IMG/VR virus record: IMGVR_UViG_3300029288_000071
Span: 1 to 64,000 of that record
Direction: 5' to 3' (one strand)
Source of the DNA: a virus
Lineage: Duplodnaviria; Caudoviricetes
Length of the DNA: 64,000 bases
Part shown: positions 11,232 to 63,675 of the stretch, in pieces
Position numbering within the stretch: the stretch's first letter is position 1
Layout of the letters: every line of letters starts with the position of its first letter
Program-made: the position numbers and the translations under genes
The notes under the pieces: model-generated
The model's database searches: none
What the model saw: only the letters and a program-made list of their open reading frames with translations
Told to the model about the DNA's origin: nothing

Positions 11232-12950
11232 ATGTCAGATTATAATTTTATCAAAGAAATGGCTGGATCTGAACTCGAGTCAAGAGCTTCAATAACCAAA
11301 CGTCTCGTTGAAAAATGGGGTAAAACCAATCTTTTGAAGAAACTTTCAAAAGGTAACGGCCAAATTATGGCTAACTTGCTTGAACAAGAAGCAAGAGGTT
11401 TGAAACAATTGAATGAAGGTTCAACGGTATCAGATATCGCTGGCTTCAATAAAATTGCTTTCCCATTAGTTCGAAGAGTGTTTGCACAATTGATTGCAAA
11501 TGAAATCGTTTCAGTACAACCAATGAGCTTACCATCTGGTTTGCTTTTCTACTTGGATTTCTATTTCGATAGATACAAGGGTGGATTTGCTTCAGGTGGA
11601 TCAGTTTATGGTAACAAATCACCTATAGTTAATCAAACACTTGAAGGTGTTGGTGGTATGACTGCAGGTGGTGGATTCTATGAATTGAATAGTGGTTATT
11701 CAACACGAAGTTATCTATTGTCAGCAAATGGCATTACAGGAACTGGTGGATTGCTCACAGAAGCAGTAACATCAGCTCTTATTGGTCAAGTTACACCAGT
11801 TAGATTTACAATTGGTGCAGCATCAGCAACTATGGATTTGGCACAATTGTTTAATATGAGACTTGCTCTTTCTAGTGAATTTAATCTTGGAACTACAACT
11901 TTCAGATCACAAAAACCTGTTGAGAATCTTACAGCAGAATCATTGTGGGGAACATATGACCCTTCATTAACTAGATATAGTGCAAACCAACTTACATTTT
12001 ATTGTAACTCTACAGCAGTAGAATCAATAACAGCTGCAGCAGCTTCAGGAACTAGTAAGGTATTGGTTTATGGCCCAATGAAGACTGATTTGCAAGATAA
12101 TCCAAAATCAACTGTACTTGGAGATTTTGAAGCTGTAACAGGTATTCCACAATTGAACATCAGTATTTCTAGCGTACCAGTAATGGCACAAACTAGAAAA
12201 TTGAAAACTCAATGGACTCCTGAATTAGCTCAAGATTTAAATGCTTATCACGCATTAGATGCAGAAGTTGAATTAACAACCATTCTTTCAGAAGCCATCG
12301 CACTTGAAATTGACCGAGAAATTCTTGGTGAATTAATTAAAGGTGCAACTGTAAAAGCTGCTTGGTCACGAAAAATTGGTAAATATGTATCACTTTCAGC
12401 AGATGGTGTTATAGTTTCTACTAAATCACTTGCAGATGCTTCACAAGGAAGCTACCAAGCATTCTATGGTACTCAACAAGATTGGTATCAAACACTTGGT
12501 GAAACAGTTACTACAGTAAGTAATGAAATCCATAAGAGATCATTGAGACATGGTGCTAACTTCATTGTTACAAGCCCTGAAATTAGCTCAGTCATTGAAT
12601 CAATTAATGGATTCAAACCAACAATCTTATCAGACGCTTCTGAAGTTGAATACAGCTTTGGAACAGAAAAGACAGGTACTTTGTCAAGCAGATACACTGT
12701 TTACAAAGATCCTTATTTCCCAGCTGATTTGATGTTGCTTGGATATAAAGGCGGTTCATTCTTGGAAACAGGATTTGTATATGCTCCTTATGTCCCATTG
12801 TTAGTAACACCTACTATTTTTGCTCCTGAAGACTTCACACCACGAAGAGCTGTAATGACACGATATGCAAAACAAATGGTTAGACCTGAAATGTACGGAG
12901 TTATTAGAGTTGTTGACTTAGACTTTATTGGCTCACCTGCATCAATTTAA
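11232..12950 (+). CDS. Major capsid protein (T4 gp23 family)
   Basis: FPLVRRVF, VSVQPMSLPSGL.FYLD, TRKLK..WTPELAQDLNAYH.LDAE.EL, YAPYVPL, MTRY. Confidence 0.95.
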   Translation: MSDYNFIKEMAGSELESRASITKRLVEKWGKTNLLKKLSKGNGQIMANLLEQEARGLKQLNEGSTVSDIAGFNKIAFPLVRRVFAQLIANEIVSVQPMSLPSGLLFYLDFYFDRYKGGFASGGSVYGNKSPIVNQTLEGVGGMTAGGGFYELNSGYSTRSYLLSANGITGTGGLLTEAVTSALIGQVTPVRFTIGAASATMDLAQLFNMRLALSSEFNLGTTTFRSQKPVENLTAESLWGTYDPSLTRYSANQLTFYCNSTAVESITAAAASGTSKVLVYGPMKTDLQDNPKSTVLGDFEAVTGIPQLNISISSVPVMAQTRKLKTQWTPELAQDLNAYHALDAEVELTTILSEAIALEIDREILGELIKGATVKAAWSRKIGKYVSLSADGVIVSTKSLADASQGSYQAFYGTQQDWYQTLGETVTTVSNEIHKRSLRHGANFIVTSPEISSVIESINGFKPTILSDASEVEYSFGTEKTGTLSSRYTVYKDPYFPADLMLLGYKGGSFLETGFVYAPYVPLLVTPTIFAPEDFTPRRAVMTRYAKQMVRPEMYGVIRVVDLDFIGSPASI

Positions 12951-52029: not shown

Positions 52030-53322
52030 TCAATTAAGAGCTTTTAGATTGATAAGTGGTTTAATTCTATTTATTATTTCTGCAGTTGGTTCAATAGCTG
52101 CTTCGATTACTGAAGCTGACTTATAAGCATCTGGTGCTTCATCAAGTGTAGCATTAACTACTGAAGTAGAATAAATTTCTTTCATTTGTTCTTTAAAAGT
52201 TTCTAAAGATAAAGTTCTTTTTGCTACACCTCTAGCAAGAACTCTTCCTGCACCATGAGGGGCAGATTCATTCCATTCTTTATTTCCTTTTCCTTTACAA
52301 ATAAGAATGCCATCTCTCATATTAAATGGAATGATCATAACTTCATCTTTATGAGCACTAATTGCTCCTTTTCTAATAATCATATCTTTGAAGTCAATAT
52401 AATTATGTATTGATTCAATTTCTTCATCTATGTTCGCATTTGATATTACTTTGTTAAGTATCAATTTTTGCATTTGTTTTCTATTCCATTTAGCATACTC
52501 TTGTGCAAAAATCATATCTTCTAAATATCCTTGAGCATCTGATTTTATAAGATATTCTAATTCATTTGAAACTTTATCTGCTCTACCATAAATTTTTAAT
52601 CTAGCTAATTTGATATCTTGACTAATTCTTTGTCTAAGTTCAGGAGTAGTTGCATTAGCTTTTATTAAATCAGTAGCTTTTTTCATTTCTAAATCAAGTA
52701 AAGTTTTATCTTTATTTTGTGCAACTTTAGTCCAATAATTTGCAATTTTTAAACCAAAATTTCTAGAACCAGAATGAATAGTTAACCAAATTTTATCTTC
52801 TAAATCTCTTCCTACTTCAATAAAATGATTTCCACCACCTAAAGTACCAATTGAATTACAAGCATATTTAACATTTACATTAATTTGTTTACATTTATCT
52901 TCAAACCATTTCATATTAAAGAGTTCTGTTCCGCTAAATTTATATACTGCTTTATTTGCTTCTTCCCAAGGAAATTCTTTTTCAAAGTTAAGAATAGCTC
53001 TATTATGAATTTCTTGCCCAAAAGGAATATATTTTCTTATTTCAGAATTAATAAGAGCTTTGTTAATATCTTCTACTTTAATTCTAGTAGCTAACATACC
53101 ACAACCAATATCTACTCCAATTGTGTTTGGAATAATTTTATCAGTTAATGGCATTGTAAAACCCACAACACTTCCCTTTCCTGCATGACAATCAGGCATG
53201 ATAACAACTTGATTTGTAAATGCAGGATGATTGATAAATTTTGTAATTTGAGCTATACACTCTTCTTCAACACTATCAATCATAATTTTTGCTGAAGTAT
53301 ATTTTCCGTTTAATGTAAACAT
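52030..53322 (-). CDS. rtcB: RtcB RNA ligase
   Basis: MPDCHAG, GVDIGCG, GTLGGGNHFIE, HSGSR, HNY, RKGA, PHGAGR, DEAP.AYK. Confidence 0.95.
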   Translation of the reverse strand: MFTLNGKYTSAKIMIDSVEEECIAQITKFINHPAFTNQVVIMPDCHAGKGSVVGFTMPLTDKIIPNTIGVDIGCGMLATRIKVEDINKALINSEIRKYIPFGQEIHNRAILNFEKEFPWEEANKAVYKFSGTELFNMKWFEDKCKQINVNVKYACNSIGTLGGGNHFIEVGRDLEDKIWLTIHSGSRNFGLKIANYWTKVAQNKDKTLLDLEMKKATDLIKANATTPELRQRISQDIKLARLKIYGRADKVSNELEYLIKSDAQGYLEDMIFAQEYAKWNRKQMQKLILNKVISNANIDEEIESIHNYIDFKDMIIRKGAISAHKDEVMIIPFNMRDGILICKGKGNKEWNESAPHGAGRVLARGVAKRTLSLETFKEQMKEIYSTSVVNATLDEAPDAYKSASVIEAAIEPTAEIINRIKPLINLKALN

Positions 53323-57834: not shown

Positions 57835-57862
57835 TAATGAGGCTAATCAGGCCATCATTAAG

Positions 57863-57936
57863 TAGCCCAGATGGGATTCGAACCCATAGATTTCTGATTC
57901 TAAGTCAGATAGATATGCCAGTTCTCGTACTGGGCC
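57863..57936 (-). tRNA. tRNA-Leu(TAG), short variable loop
   Basis: TCTGA-CTTAGAA-TCAGA; GGTTCGAATCC; A73. Confidence 0.85.
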
Positions 57937-58145
57937 GTTATGTTTCTTTCTTCATACAATTACAAGGTGAAAATCTTTTACATTTACAATTTTCGCAACT
58001 ATAAGTTGGAAATTTCCCTTTTTCAACTCTATTTCTGAGTCTCTTAAGGCCTTTATAATCTTTTTTTACTGCTACTATTCCCATCCAAACTGGATTTGTT
58101 TGATTTTCTTCCATATTCTTCCTGTTAATAAATATCTTTTAATTT

Positions 58146-58402
58146 AACCAAGTGTACCCTAGATTCTGTTTTATTCTATCATCTGTCTTGTGGCCGCTAC
58201 CCGTATTATTTGCTTAAGAAAAGTGCCAAGCTAATACTGTTTGCGTTGCATACATGCTAAGTAGTATAAGCGAGTCTAGCATTCTCGGGTTAACTGCCCC
58301 AGCGCTATAAGTCAAGACTCTCCTACCCTTTCCTTTATATGTCTAGAGGTTCCTCTCATCTTTCTGAACTAGTCGAAAGGTAGAGCGATAGATCCTTCAG
58401 TT
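58146..58402 (-). ncRNA. rnpB: RNase P RNA, compact, with type A-like catalytic domain
   Basis: GAGGAACCUCUAGAC and ACAGAAUCUAGGGUA form P4 with a bulged U; P2, P3, P5, P6 and P15-P17 can be drawn; L15 GGU; AGACAGAUGAU. Confidence 0.8.
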
Positions 58403-58720
58403 AAAAGTATTTTTTATAATTTCGTCTGCTTCAGATTCAGGAAAACCAGCTTCATTAATCAAAATATTTCTTAATCGAGATTTATAATCTTCAATAGCTT
58501 TCTTTAAAGTTGATCTAAGTATTTTATTGATTTCTTTAAGTTTTTCAAAATCGTCTTTAAGTTTTTCTGATTCTTTGTCTTTAATAGGTTGAAATAAATC
58601 ATTCCAGTCTTTTTCGGCGGTATCATCATAGGGTTTTTCAATTCCTTTAACCCATTTATACCATTTATTTTTATCATCTCCATAATGGGGAATTTCCCAA
58701 TAATTTGTTGGTTTAGCCAT
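58397..58720 (-). CDS. Hypothetical protein
   Basis: AAGGAG SD. Confidence 0.6.
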   Translation of the reverse strand: MAKPTNYWEIPHYGDDKNKWYKWVKGIEKPYDDTAEKDWNDLFQPIKDKESEKLKDDFEKLKEINKILRSTLKKAIEDYKSRLRNILINEAGFPESEADEIIKNTFN

Positions 58721-62162: not shown

Positions 62163-62164
62163 AG

Positions 62165-62251
62165 TAGCCCAGGAGGGACTTGAACCCTCACGCCCTCTAA
62201 CGAGCATCAGATTTTAAGTCTGATATGTTCTTCCAATTTCATCACTGGGCC
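62165..62251 (-). tRNA. tRNA-Leu(TAA)
   Basis: TCAGA-CTTAAAA-TCTGA; long variable arm. Confidence 0.9.
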
Positions 62252-62259
62252 ATTTACAG

Positions 62260-62344
62260 CGGAAGATATGCGAGTTGAACGCATTCTCGATTTCCCGAGG
62301 CCTTGGTTTAGCAAACCAGCCGATTACCGTTATCGTCATCTTCC
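62260..62344 (-). tRNA. tRNA-Ser(GCT)
   Basis: TGGT-TTGCTAA-ACCA; long variable arm; G73. Confidence 0.85.
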
Positions 62345-62484
62345 ATTGCCTTGTTCAAAGTACAAGGCTAAACTTGGAAAGTAGACTGAACTATAAAGCA
62401 AGTTCTGTCCCCGCCGCCACTTGATTTTTAAGAAAATCAAGAAAAAGACTATAAGTCAGTCTCTACAAAGAGAAGACTGGGGAT

Positions 62485-63675
62485 TTATTTTACTTTATAA
62501 AGTAACATTGTTCCACGAACAAGAATTCTGTTCAAAGATGTTGACTTAATAAATATCCTGTAATTCATATGATTTCCAGGTTTTACTTTGCATACTGTAG
62601 TCGAAGGCATCTGTAGAACTTGTCTTGCTTGATCACCACCATAAATCTTTCCATTTGATTTGTCCATGATCAAAATTTCTTTGTAATCTTGAACTTTTTC
62701 AGGCTTTGTTAGTTCATAAAAACCATTGCCTTTTACAAAATTCAAACCTTCTGATTCTACAAAATCTTTGATAGAACATTCTTTCATGACTTGTAATTTC
62801 TTGAATTGATTATTCATGACATCTAAATTAGCTTGAATAGCTGATTTAGATACTTTTGACATATCAGTTGTGAAGAAAGATTTTGTAGATGTTTGACCCA
62901 AACTTCTTGCATGGAAATAACTAGAAGTTCCAATATTAGCAGCAACTGATAAATTTTGGATTCCTATTTTTGTTTGATCCCATTCAGTAATATTTCCAGC
63001 TGGTACTCCAAAAAAAGATTGAATATAATGAGAATCACCTCTAGGAACACTAAATACAAAACTCCATCTATCAGTTCCTTGTTTATCTCTGATTTTCTTT
63101 GCAATATTTGCTGCATTACTGATTCGTGAACTGTTTTCTTGTCCATCAGTTATTGTGATGAGAAGAAAACTTATATCTTCTGTATTATGTGAAGCTTGAT
63201 GATCTAATTCTATAAGTGCAGTATCTACTGCATCAATTAAAGCTGTACCACCATTTGGTTCATAATCATTAGCTTTAATTGGGTGTATCATTCTTGATTC
63301 TATATCTTTACAGATCCACTCAAAACCAGTAGAAAATTTTCCGATTGAAATGAATGTTTGCTGGTTGAGTTTGTATGCTTCATTTCTAATTGTGTCAATT
63401 TGAGAATTTAAAACATTTATTGCATCATATCTGAGACCTTGCATTGAACCTGAAGCATCAATTAATAGAGCAATTCTATTAATTAGAGGTTTTGTTATTT
63501 GAGGTGCATTTTGTTGTGCAACTGATTGAGTAACTGTTTTTTTAGCTGGAATTCTATCTAGACAGCGTTTACAAGTTACTTTTGAATTTGTTTTTGTTAC
63601 GTTTGTTGTGTATTGCGTTTGACCACAAATGGGATAGCCATCTGAGTCAGATTTGTGCCATTTGAGTTGTGACAT
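62485..63675 (-). CDS. vWA domain protein with N-terminal Cys motif
   Basis: DASGSM, GGTALIDA, ITDGQENSS. Confidence 0.85.
   Translation of the reverse strand: MSQLKWHKSDSDGYPICGQTQYTTNVTKTNSKVTCKRCLDRIPAKKTVTQSVAQQNAPQITKPLINRIALLIDASGSMQGLRYDAINVLNSQIDTIRNEAYKLNQQTFISIGKFSTGFEWICKDIESRMIHPIKANDYEPNGGTALIDAVDTALIELDHQASHNTEDISFLLITITDGQENSSRISNAANIAKKIRDKQGTDRWSFVFSVPRGDSHYIQSFFGVPAGNITEWDQTKIGIQNLSVAANIGTSSYFHARSLGQTSTKSFFTTDMSKVSKSAIQANLDVMNNQFKKLQVMKECSIKDFVESEGLNFVKGNGFYELTKPEKVQDYKEILIMDKSNGKIYGGDQARQVLQMPSTTVCKVKPGNHMNYRIFIKSTSLNRILVRGTMLLYKVK

Follow-up and report, generated by a model that had tools for sequence, protein, structure and literature searches.

Predicted mini ribonuclease P RNAs form a conserved family in large, tRNA-rich phages

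The virus record IMGVR_UViG_3300029288_000071 (Duplodnaviria; Caudoviricetes) from IMG/VR originates from a landfill metagenome and comprises 207,030 bp, with a CheckV completeness of 91% and a genome-wide guanine-plus-cytosine (GC) content of 29%. Its first 64 kb are the stretch analysed here and are referred to as the window. The phage is T4-like and encodes a major head protein (11232-12950), a baseplate wedge, RtcB and a NAD-dependent ligase. It possesses 27 tRNA genes, every one on the minus strand, located between 57.5 and 79 kb. Between two minus-strand open reading frames (ORFs) of 107 and 58 amino acids (aa; 58397-58720 and 57938-58114) lies an intergenic locus in which the longest ORF does not exceed 33 aa. 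With a GC content of 0.43-0.44, against 0.29 for the genome, the locus resembles the tRNA genes and differs from the surrounding DNA. An initial annotation had described it as a minimal ribonuclease P (RNase P) ribozyme. In our analysis the locus probably encodes a type-A-like RNase P RNA, consisting of the catalytic domain (C-domain) and a stub of the specificity domain (S-domain), that matures the phage tRNAs together with the host protein RnpA.

BLASTN of the locus against GenBank phages returned one weak match of 38 nucleotides (nt), in the 595-kb uncultured phage LR756511. The sequence around this match displayed the same motif order with other helix sequences, and the LR756511 copy led to a third copy in the 642-kb uncultured phage LR756502. 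A covariance model, R1, was built from the LR756511 and LR756502 copies only, with helix P4 modelled in place of helix P2. R1 matched the 64-kb window at 58144-58404 on the minus strand with 83 bits and an expectation value (E) of 7e-20 over model positions 1-215, the next match having an E of 1.1; over the whole 207-kb genome a single copy was present. The invariant 5' motif (AUCGC.CUAC ... AUG.GAGGAA) was sought in IMG/VR and in JGI metagenomes; after filtering with R1, 45 matches with 36 distinct sequences remained, several of them on contigs of 296-525 kb. The phage mini RNase P RNAs form a conserved family of 200-300 nt in large tRNA-rich phages. A full-length match to R1 (41.3 bits, E 9e-9) was also located in the cultured Stenotrophomonas phage DLP6 (KU682439.2, 105777-106015), in an unannotated gap of a tRNA cluster between the coding sequence AAY80_165 and tRNA-Arg-CCG, 10 nt before the latter. 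When the window and DLP6 copies were compared with cultured phages by BLASTN, only the 38-nt LR756511 match and the self-match were obtained.

The window copy represents a divergent lineage, with at most 65% identity to any collected member. It contains all the invariant motifs of the family (AUCGC.CUAC, AUG.GAGGAA, GGU, AGA.A.AUGAU and AACAGAA). Among the other members 51 columns reach a conservation of at least 90%, and the window copy matches 50 of these; in the remaining one it reads AGAUGAU where the family has AAAUGAU. In one genome each for 185,579 prokaryotic species, the 5' motif occurred at 24 loci of bacteria or metagenome-assembled genomes. None of these 24 fitted R1, and as their number lies within the chance expectation for the pattern they were treated as chance matches. 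As far as this test goes, the family appears to be confined to phages. Among 44 IMG/VR relatives of the major capsid protein (mostly fragments of about 40% identity, one of 92% and one complete 195-kb genome) no copy was found, so that the distribution of the family is patchy. Metagenome contigs from three other samples covered only conserved pieces, which belong to relatives. A description of phage-encoded RNase P RNA was not found in the literature, of which most subscription journals lie outside the full-text coverage, and Rfam 15 holds no model that captures the phage family.

The predicted elements of the window copy (P, paired region; J, joining segment; L, loop; CR, conserved region) are listed in Table 1. 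All pairings that had been proposed (P2, P3, P4, P5, P6, P15, P16 and P17) are present at their assigned places on the minus strand. The length of about 257 nt (58146-58402) was correct in location and too short in its limits, since a 9-bp P1 closes the molecule and extends the gene to 263 nt, overlapping the stop codon of the upstream ORF. The RNA is assigned to the minus strand because of its G-U pairs and the covariance-model match. P1, P2 and P3 are present, with P2 crossing P4 as a pseudoknot, and so are the P15-P16-P17 arm with the P6 pseudoknot to the P17 loop, a hallmark of type A, and the GGU on the 3' side of the P15/16 loop. P4 consists of 3 bp, a bulged U and 5 bp, formed by ACC-U-CUAGA with UCUAG-GGU. 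The P18 hairpin is absent, in agreement with the initial annotation, and a plain 14-nt single strand connects P15 to P2. CR-II and CR-III are likewise absent, and only P7 and a stub of about 60 nt represent the S-domain. Folded as a single sequence with RNAfold, the window copy scored no better than shuffles (z +0.23); since such a fold is uninformative, the structural support derives from comparison with relatives and not from folding energy.

Table 1 Predicted elements of the mini RNase P RNA gene, adjacent genes and relatives with a bulgeless P4 (positions of the window, or locus:position for relatives)
Feature	Position	Strand	Remarks
Whole mini RNase P RNA gene	58143-58405	minus	263 nt, P1 to P1; covariance-model match and P1 limits
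P1 5' strand UUUAACUGA	58397-58405	minus	Contains TGA stop of ORF 58397-58720
P1 3' strand UUGGUUAAA	58143-58151	minus	Pairs with 58397-58405, 9 bp including 2 G-U
P2 5' strand UCUAUC, then invariant GC	58387-58392	minus	Partner GAUAGA 58175-58180
P3 hairpin	58355-58385	minus	CUC/GAG, UAC/AU internal loop, CUUUC/GAAAG, 10-nt loop
CR-I equivalent: GAGGA and P4 5' strand ACC-U-CUAGA	58342-58355	minus	Bulged U at 58347
J2/4 AUAAAACAGAA (CR-V equivalent) and P4 3' strand UCUAG-GGU	58156-58174	minus	P4 strand follows ACAGAA
P5 5' strand CAUA	58338-58341	minus	Partner UAUG 58249-58252
P6 pseudoknot 5' strand AGGAAAG	58328-58334	minus	Partner CUUUUCU 58217-58223, in P17 loop
Mini specificity-domain remnant	58260-58327	minus	P7, GAG, 47-nt hairpin, CGCUUAUA
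P7 GGUAG/CUACU	58323-58327/58260-58264	minus	Inside mini specificity-domain remnant
GAG	58320-58322	minus	Inside mini-domain
Lineage-specific hairpin	58273-58319	minus	Inside mini-domain
CGCUUAUA	58265-58272	minus	Inside mini-domain
J5/15 CAA	58246-58248	minus	Equivalent of E. coli A248/A249, pre-tRNA N-1 contact
P15-P16-P17 arm	58195-58245	minus	P15 CGC/GCG, J15/16 AAACA, P16 GUAUUA/UAAUAC, P17 GCUU/AAGC
J16/15 GGGUA	58198-58202	minus	3' side of P15/P16 loop
J15/2 GCCACAAGACAGAU	58181-58194	minus	Replaces P18 and J18/2; runs into P2 3' strand GAUAGA 58175-58180
tRNA-Leu(UAG)	57862-57936	minus	Closest of 27 same-strand phage tRNA genes to RNA gene; likely substrate
Cys-rich 58-aa ORF	57938-58114	minus	Separates RNA gene from tRNA-Leu; no Pfam match
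Upstream 107-aa ORF	58397-58720	minus	TGA stop inside P1; no convincing Pfam match
Bulgeless P4 members	L108:4015-4255, L143:4293-4535, L151:396-630, L170:5257-5476

Covariation among the phage homologues, which the initial annotation had suggested as a check, was strong in every helix including P4. Across the 36 distinct sequences, 93.8% of the modelled cells pair, compared with 33-37% after a shift of the 3' partners by 1-3 columns. Compensatory changes, with both sides of the pair altered, occur in 33 of 35 pairs, and none of 500 shuffles reached the observed values of pairing and compensation. In P4, seven of the eight pairs show compensatory changes and 95.9% of the cells are paired. All six modelled pairs of P1 and all four of P5 (96.5% of cells paired) covary, as do P15, P16 and P17; in P3 the inner pairs covary, and the middle outer pair is A-U in 20 sequences but U-A in 15.

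As this alignment had been fitted to the proposed structure, the result was checked in two other ways. In the first, helices were extracted by anchors from the unaligned sequences. Across 32 distinct sequences the three outer pairs of P2 covary (UA/CG/GC/AU), next to an invariant inner AUC/GAU. For P6, every member contains its own complement of 5-10 bp, with at least 10 different helix sequences in the family and a mean score of 6.4 with the own partner against 4.8 with the partners of other members. P7 occurs in at least 13 different helix sequences and also covaries in the MAFFT alignment described next (columns 99-103/141-145). In the second, an alignment of 20 members with MAFFT, folded by RNAalifold without structural input, recovered P1, P3, P4 with its unpaired U, P5, P7, the small hairpin, P15, P16 and P17, with compensatory changes in 33 of 42 pairs.

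These data bear on the reading of the locus as a functionless element, either what is left of a host rnpB that was captured and is decaying, or a resemblance by chance. The silence of Rfam on the window copy would agree with it, as would a single-sequence fold no better than shuffles. It is opposed by the pervasive compensatory change over 36 distinct relatives, by the 50 of 51 conserved columns kept in the window copy, by the GC-rich island in a genome of 29% GC and by the strength of the covariance-model match (E 7e-20). Because of the covariation and the conservation this reading is excluded as far as sequence analysis can do so, and we consider it hardly credible.

The compensated P4 with its retained bulged U, predicted for this phage at the outset, was borne out with U 58347 between the helix segments, and extends to its relatives. 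In the window copy the helix reads ACCUCUAGA/UCUAGGGU, and the near-invariant form of RF00010, AAGUCCGG / CCGGCUU, does not occur. Only 2 of 34 family members keep the bacterial AAG/CUU. The bulged U is found in 30 of the 34 distinct members; in P4 the initial A-U pair and, for the most part, the C-G pair that follows the bulge are fixed, the others being exchanged freely. Judged from these comparisons, the rewired P4 is a property of the whole family and not peculiar to this phage. A subgroup of four members (Table 1) is predicted to form a continuous 8-bp P4 from GAGGAAAU-UGGNA with UNCCAAUU, and may be either catalytically different or non-catalytic. Conservation of at least 90% was observed for GAGGAA, for AAC 58245-58247 in J5/15, for GGU in the P15/16 loop and for AGA.A.AUGAU, which runs from J15/2 into P2. 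The putative active-site elements (GAGGAA, the bulged U and ACAGAA) and substrate-contact elements (the J5/15 adenines and the L15 GGU) are kept.

That the molecule is minimal and has a reduced S-domain is supported at the sequence level by P7 and its stub. The initial annotation had seen here an irregular hairpin of about 75 nt without CR-II and CR-III. The two regions are indeed missing; irregular is not an apt description, as the segment is a family-conserved mini-domain of P7, GAG, a hairpin and CGCUUAUA. Throughout the family its order is P7 (5 bp), GAG, hairpin, CGUU..A and the P7 3' strand, and both GAG and CGUU..A are conserved. In most relatives the hairpin comprises 3 bp and a 7-nt loop, whereas that of this phage measures 47 nt; between matching flanks, a contig of another landfill sample has the short version (weak evidence). 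Much larger insertions occupy the hairpin position in the loci L085 and L154. The one in L085, whose copy spans 555-900, is about 150 nt long and holds an open frame of 69 codons (634-840). L085, L108 and L086 (3197-3437, a copy cut off by the contig end) possess an additional hairpin that follows the P2 3' strand and precedes J2/4, at the position of the type B P19.

At gathering thresholds, Rfam detected only tRNAs in the window, where the RF00010 gathering score of 100 bits was not reached, and RF00010 gave no match over the whole phage genome. The expectation that standard annotation would miss the gene was thereby confirmed by the silence of Rfam on the window copy. A comparison with the Rfam RNase P models, also suggested at the outset, turned out differently for the window copy (none at E<=10) and for four relatives, the best of which matched RF00010 with 53.8 bits. 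This relative, L152, was aligned over the full span of the model (1-367, E 1e-14, below threshold). Sub-threshold matches of full span were also obtained for L171 and L141 to RF00373 (E 4e-7 and 3e-4) and for L173 to RF00011 (E 5e-4). In the L152 alignment P1 and P3 are paired, and GAGGAA, GCAA (J5/15), the A-rich J15/16, CGGGU (J16/15), AGA.GAAUG and ACAGAA fall on the consensus; the J15/2 CCAGACGAAUG aligns to the consensus CuAGAugAAUG. About 140 S-domain positions are deleted and P18 (23 positions) is reduced to a single one. Rfam found no match when given only the sub-range L152:150-430, whereas the whole 1757-nt locus twice gave the 53.8-bit match; this loss presumably results from filtering or truncation.

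Four bona fide bacterial rnpB loci, located with RF00010, contain the same motifs in the same order as the phage family: GAGGAAAGUCCGG in four of four loci, GGGU[A/U]GG, and ACAGAA[U/C]CCGGCUUA, with CCGGCUUA in three of four. As the window copy is silent in Rfam and R1 misses rnpB, the link to RNase P rests on the sub-threshold matches of the four relatives and on the correspondence of motifs and topology. The window copy may be credited with Rfam similarity by transitivity, as a full-length member of a family with four significant matches. Given this mixed outcome, the locus was classed among bacterial-type RNase P RNAs as a structurally novel variant and not as an ordinary member of RF00010. 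Missing covariance-model similarity and missing covariation had been named beforehand as outcomes speaking against an RNase P RNA; both similarity and covariation were found, in support of the predicted assignment.

The genomic setting provides the context for a function. As initially noted, the RNA gene is situated beside tRNA genes, the nearest being tRNA-Leu(UAG). The L154 and L160 copies have tRNAs on either side at distances of 3-30 nt, and further members (L085, L091, L090, L150, L156 and L165) are located in or beside tRNA arrays. A search for rnpA (PF00825) in the 91%-complete phage genome gave no match. No conserved neighbour protein that could act as a phage cofactor was common to more than 5 of 37 loci, and none lies beside the window copy. 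As the phage lacks rnpA, RnpA of the host is the proposed partner.

In the proposed mechanism, the RNA would be transcribed within the minus-strand cluster of tRNAs and ORFs, cut out of that transcript and associated with host RnpA. It would then cleave the 5' leaders off the 27 phage pre-tRNAs, recognizing them by acceptor stem, N-1 and 3' end and not by the T/D-loop elbow normally read by the missing CR-II/CR-III. The benefit would be an extra or more permissive capacity for tRNA processing in infection. Catalytic activity of the phage RNA is plausible because a bacterial C-domain suffices for pre-tRNA cleavage in the presence and in the absence of RnpA, at lower rate and affinity (PMC4919922), and because Pyrobaculum relies on a natural form that has no S-domain (PMC4919922). 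A T at position -1, found in 20 of the 27 phage tRNAs of this T-rich genome, fits the A248/N-1 contact between RNase P RNA and pre-tRNA (PMC6582537).

Several observations weigh against this assignment. At E<=10, Rfam detected in the region 57900-58700 no RNase P (clan CL00002), tmRNA, intron or other plausible family, and R1 gave no meaningful match in bacterial genomes or in the four true rnpB loci, which may reflect a narrow model of two sequences. No part of cellular RNase P RNA is as conserved as P4 (PMC4919922), and in the phage family the sequence of this helix is not conserved; CR-II and CR-III are absent. An encoded CCA is missing from 26 of the 27 phage tRNA genes, and a search of the phage for a CCA-adding enzyme was negative; the GGU would hence act only after CCA addition by the host, or be structural. 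Lastly, the only earlier virus-encoded RNase P-like RNA, that of camelpox virus, is inactive in vitro (PMC3001073).

Part of this evidence would also suit a decoy or regulator of RnpA, in which an RNase P fold sequesters host RnpA or competes for pre-tRNAs and so throttles host tRNA maturation, catalysis being irrelevant or lost. Any protein partner would have to come from the host, the phage being without rnpA. The most conserved parts of the family are J15/2 and J2/4, the stretches at which RnpA binds in bacterial holoenzymes (PDB 3Q1R; see PMC4919922). Four family members have no bulged U, and for the inactive camelpox RNA a decoy role has been discussed (PMC3001073). We nevertheless consider a decoy improbable: it would also deprive the 27 tRNAs of the phage itself of maturation, the family element sits inside tRNA arrays, and the conserved positions include those of chemistry and substrate docking rather than protein binding, namely GAGGAA, ACAGAA, the adenines of J5/15, the GGU of L15 and the bulged U, which 30 of 34 members possess.

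The tRNA genes of the phage display further peculiarities. At about 11 of the 27, ATGAA or ATGAT (often TATGAA) follows within 1-4 nt of the 3' end and looks like the start codon of a small ORF; with such starts abutting tRNA 3' ends, tRNA processing would also define mRNA 5' ends. The tRNA-Leu(UAG) at 57862-57936 and one tRNA-Leu(CAA) at 69854-69929 are only 75-76 nt long and hence lack the long variable arm expected in bacterial tRNA-Leu, the three other Leu tRNAs of the phage having 85-89 nt. In the huge-phage contigs L093, L095, L096, L097 and L178, tRNAs whose anticodon is CUA (TAG suppressors, named tRNA-Pyl by ARAGORN) are separated from the mini RNase P gene by a few kb, which hints at stop-codon recoding in those phages.

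A retargeted ribozyme, active mainly on polycistronic phage transcripts, tRNA-like elements or atypical tRNAs poorly handled by the host enzyme, would explain the loss of the S-domain as an adaptation. The small ORFs that begin 1-4 nt after many tRNA genes (TATGAA), where tRNA cleavage would shape mRNA ends, and the unusually short tRNA-Leu genes of 75-76 nt point in this direction, as does the absence of CR-II/III from a molecule that keeps the small P7/GAG/CGUU module. Yet nothing shows that host RNase P fails on such substrates, the elements contacting acceptor stem, N-1 and CCA are the standard ones, and the Pyrobaculum forms without S-domain still process ordinary pre-tRNAs (PMC4919922). 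There is in our view only a small chance that retargeting is the main role.

Somewhat less remote, if still doubtful, is a self-sufficient or host-RnpA-assisted ribozyme whose substrate range differs from that of the host enzyme through the loss of the elbow domain and the free variation of P4. If so, atypical tRNAs, tRNA-like mRNA punctuation or CCA-less precursors would be processed, large phages would own a private pathway of tRNA maturation, and the P4 sequence, supposedly universal, would not be needed for the chemistry of RNase P. Maturation of the phage tRNAs with host RnpA remains the preferred function.

The neighbourhood of the gene offered few additional clues. No relatives of the flanking 107-aa protein, sought as a handle on related loci, were found, and a scan for promoters and terminators beside the RNA gene yielded nothing above shuffle expectation. 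Elsewhere in the window, a second GC-rich non-coding patch (62252-62450, GC 0.41-0.45) is located directly upstream of tRNA-Leu(UAA) (62164-62251). It follows a minus-strand ORF of 396 aa (62485-63675) with weak VWA-domain matches, and the RtcB ligase gene (52030-53322) lies 9 kb from it. Patch, VWA ORF and RtcB could be an RNA repair module of the Ro60/Y-RNA/RtcB type.

Only two ribozymes are universal, and RNase P RNA, seen as a cellular hallmark, is one of them; the base pairs of its P4 are ranked with the most highly conserved nucleotides in biology. A conserved, half-sized phage RNase P RNA would add a ribozyme to the translation-related functions of large phages. Structural and mechanistic studies would gain dozens of naturally occurring minimal catalytic domains, 200-260 nt in size, and the family would show that the P4 pairs are freely exchangeable if helix geometry, the bulged U and the flanking GAGGAA and ACAGAA are kept. 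It would also expose a blind spot of annotation, Rfam being silent at the window locus and the DLP6 copy being unannotated. Since DLP6 and its host can be grown, the function is directly testable.

Among known systems, the closest correspondence is with type A RNase P RNA (E. coli M1/rnpB, RF00010), whose catalytic domain is characterized by a P2 crossing P4, a P6 to the P17 loop and a P4 of 3+5 bp with a bulged U (PMC4919922). The phage RNA shares with it the order and topology of P1-P7 and P15-P17, including the P2/P4 and P6 pseudoknots, and its P4 has the same build, preceded by GAGGAA on the 5' strand and ACAGAA on the 3' strand. Further common features are the AA in J5/15, the A-rich J15/16, GGGUA in J16/15 and AGAUGA before the P2 3' strand. 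In contrast to type A, the phage RNA is only 263 nt long (352-491 nt in the four rnpB loci), has P8-P14 replaced by a stub of about 60 nt and lacks P18, and its P4 covaries freely where type A has a near-invariant AAG-U-CCGG/CCGG-CUU. It is also encoded by a virus without rnpA, in a family that stays below the Rfam thresholds and whose window copy goes undetected.

The RNase P-like RNA of camelpox virus, like the phage RNA, is virus-encoded and resembles RNase P RNA; it did not process pre-tRNA in vitro and had an effect of about 20% on host RNase P (PMC3001073). It differs in belonging to an animal virus and in resembling the eukaryal H1 RNA, and no tRNA array or large covarying family has been reported there. 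In its reduction the phage RNA resembles the type T (type P) RNase P RNA of Pyrobaculum and relatives (RF02357), which according to the account of Lai et al. 2010 given in PMC4919922 is a natural RNA of about 200 nt with a catalytic domain and nearly the whole S-domain missing. Both are small natural RNase P RNAs that keep the catalytic domain without nearly all of the S-domain. Type T is, however, archaeal, with archaeal Rpp proteins and archaeal features of P15-P17 and L15, whereas the window copy gave no match to RF02357 at E<=10 and has the architecture of the bacterial type A (P6, P16/P17, L15 GGU); the two reductions are independent. Engineered bacterial C-domain RNAs, which cleave pre-tRNA without an S-domain, are laboratory constructs of reduced rate and affinity, whereas the phage RNAs are natural, under purifying selection and equipped with a conserved P7/GAG/CGUU module.

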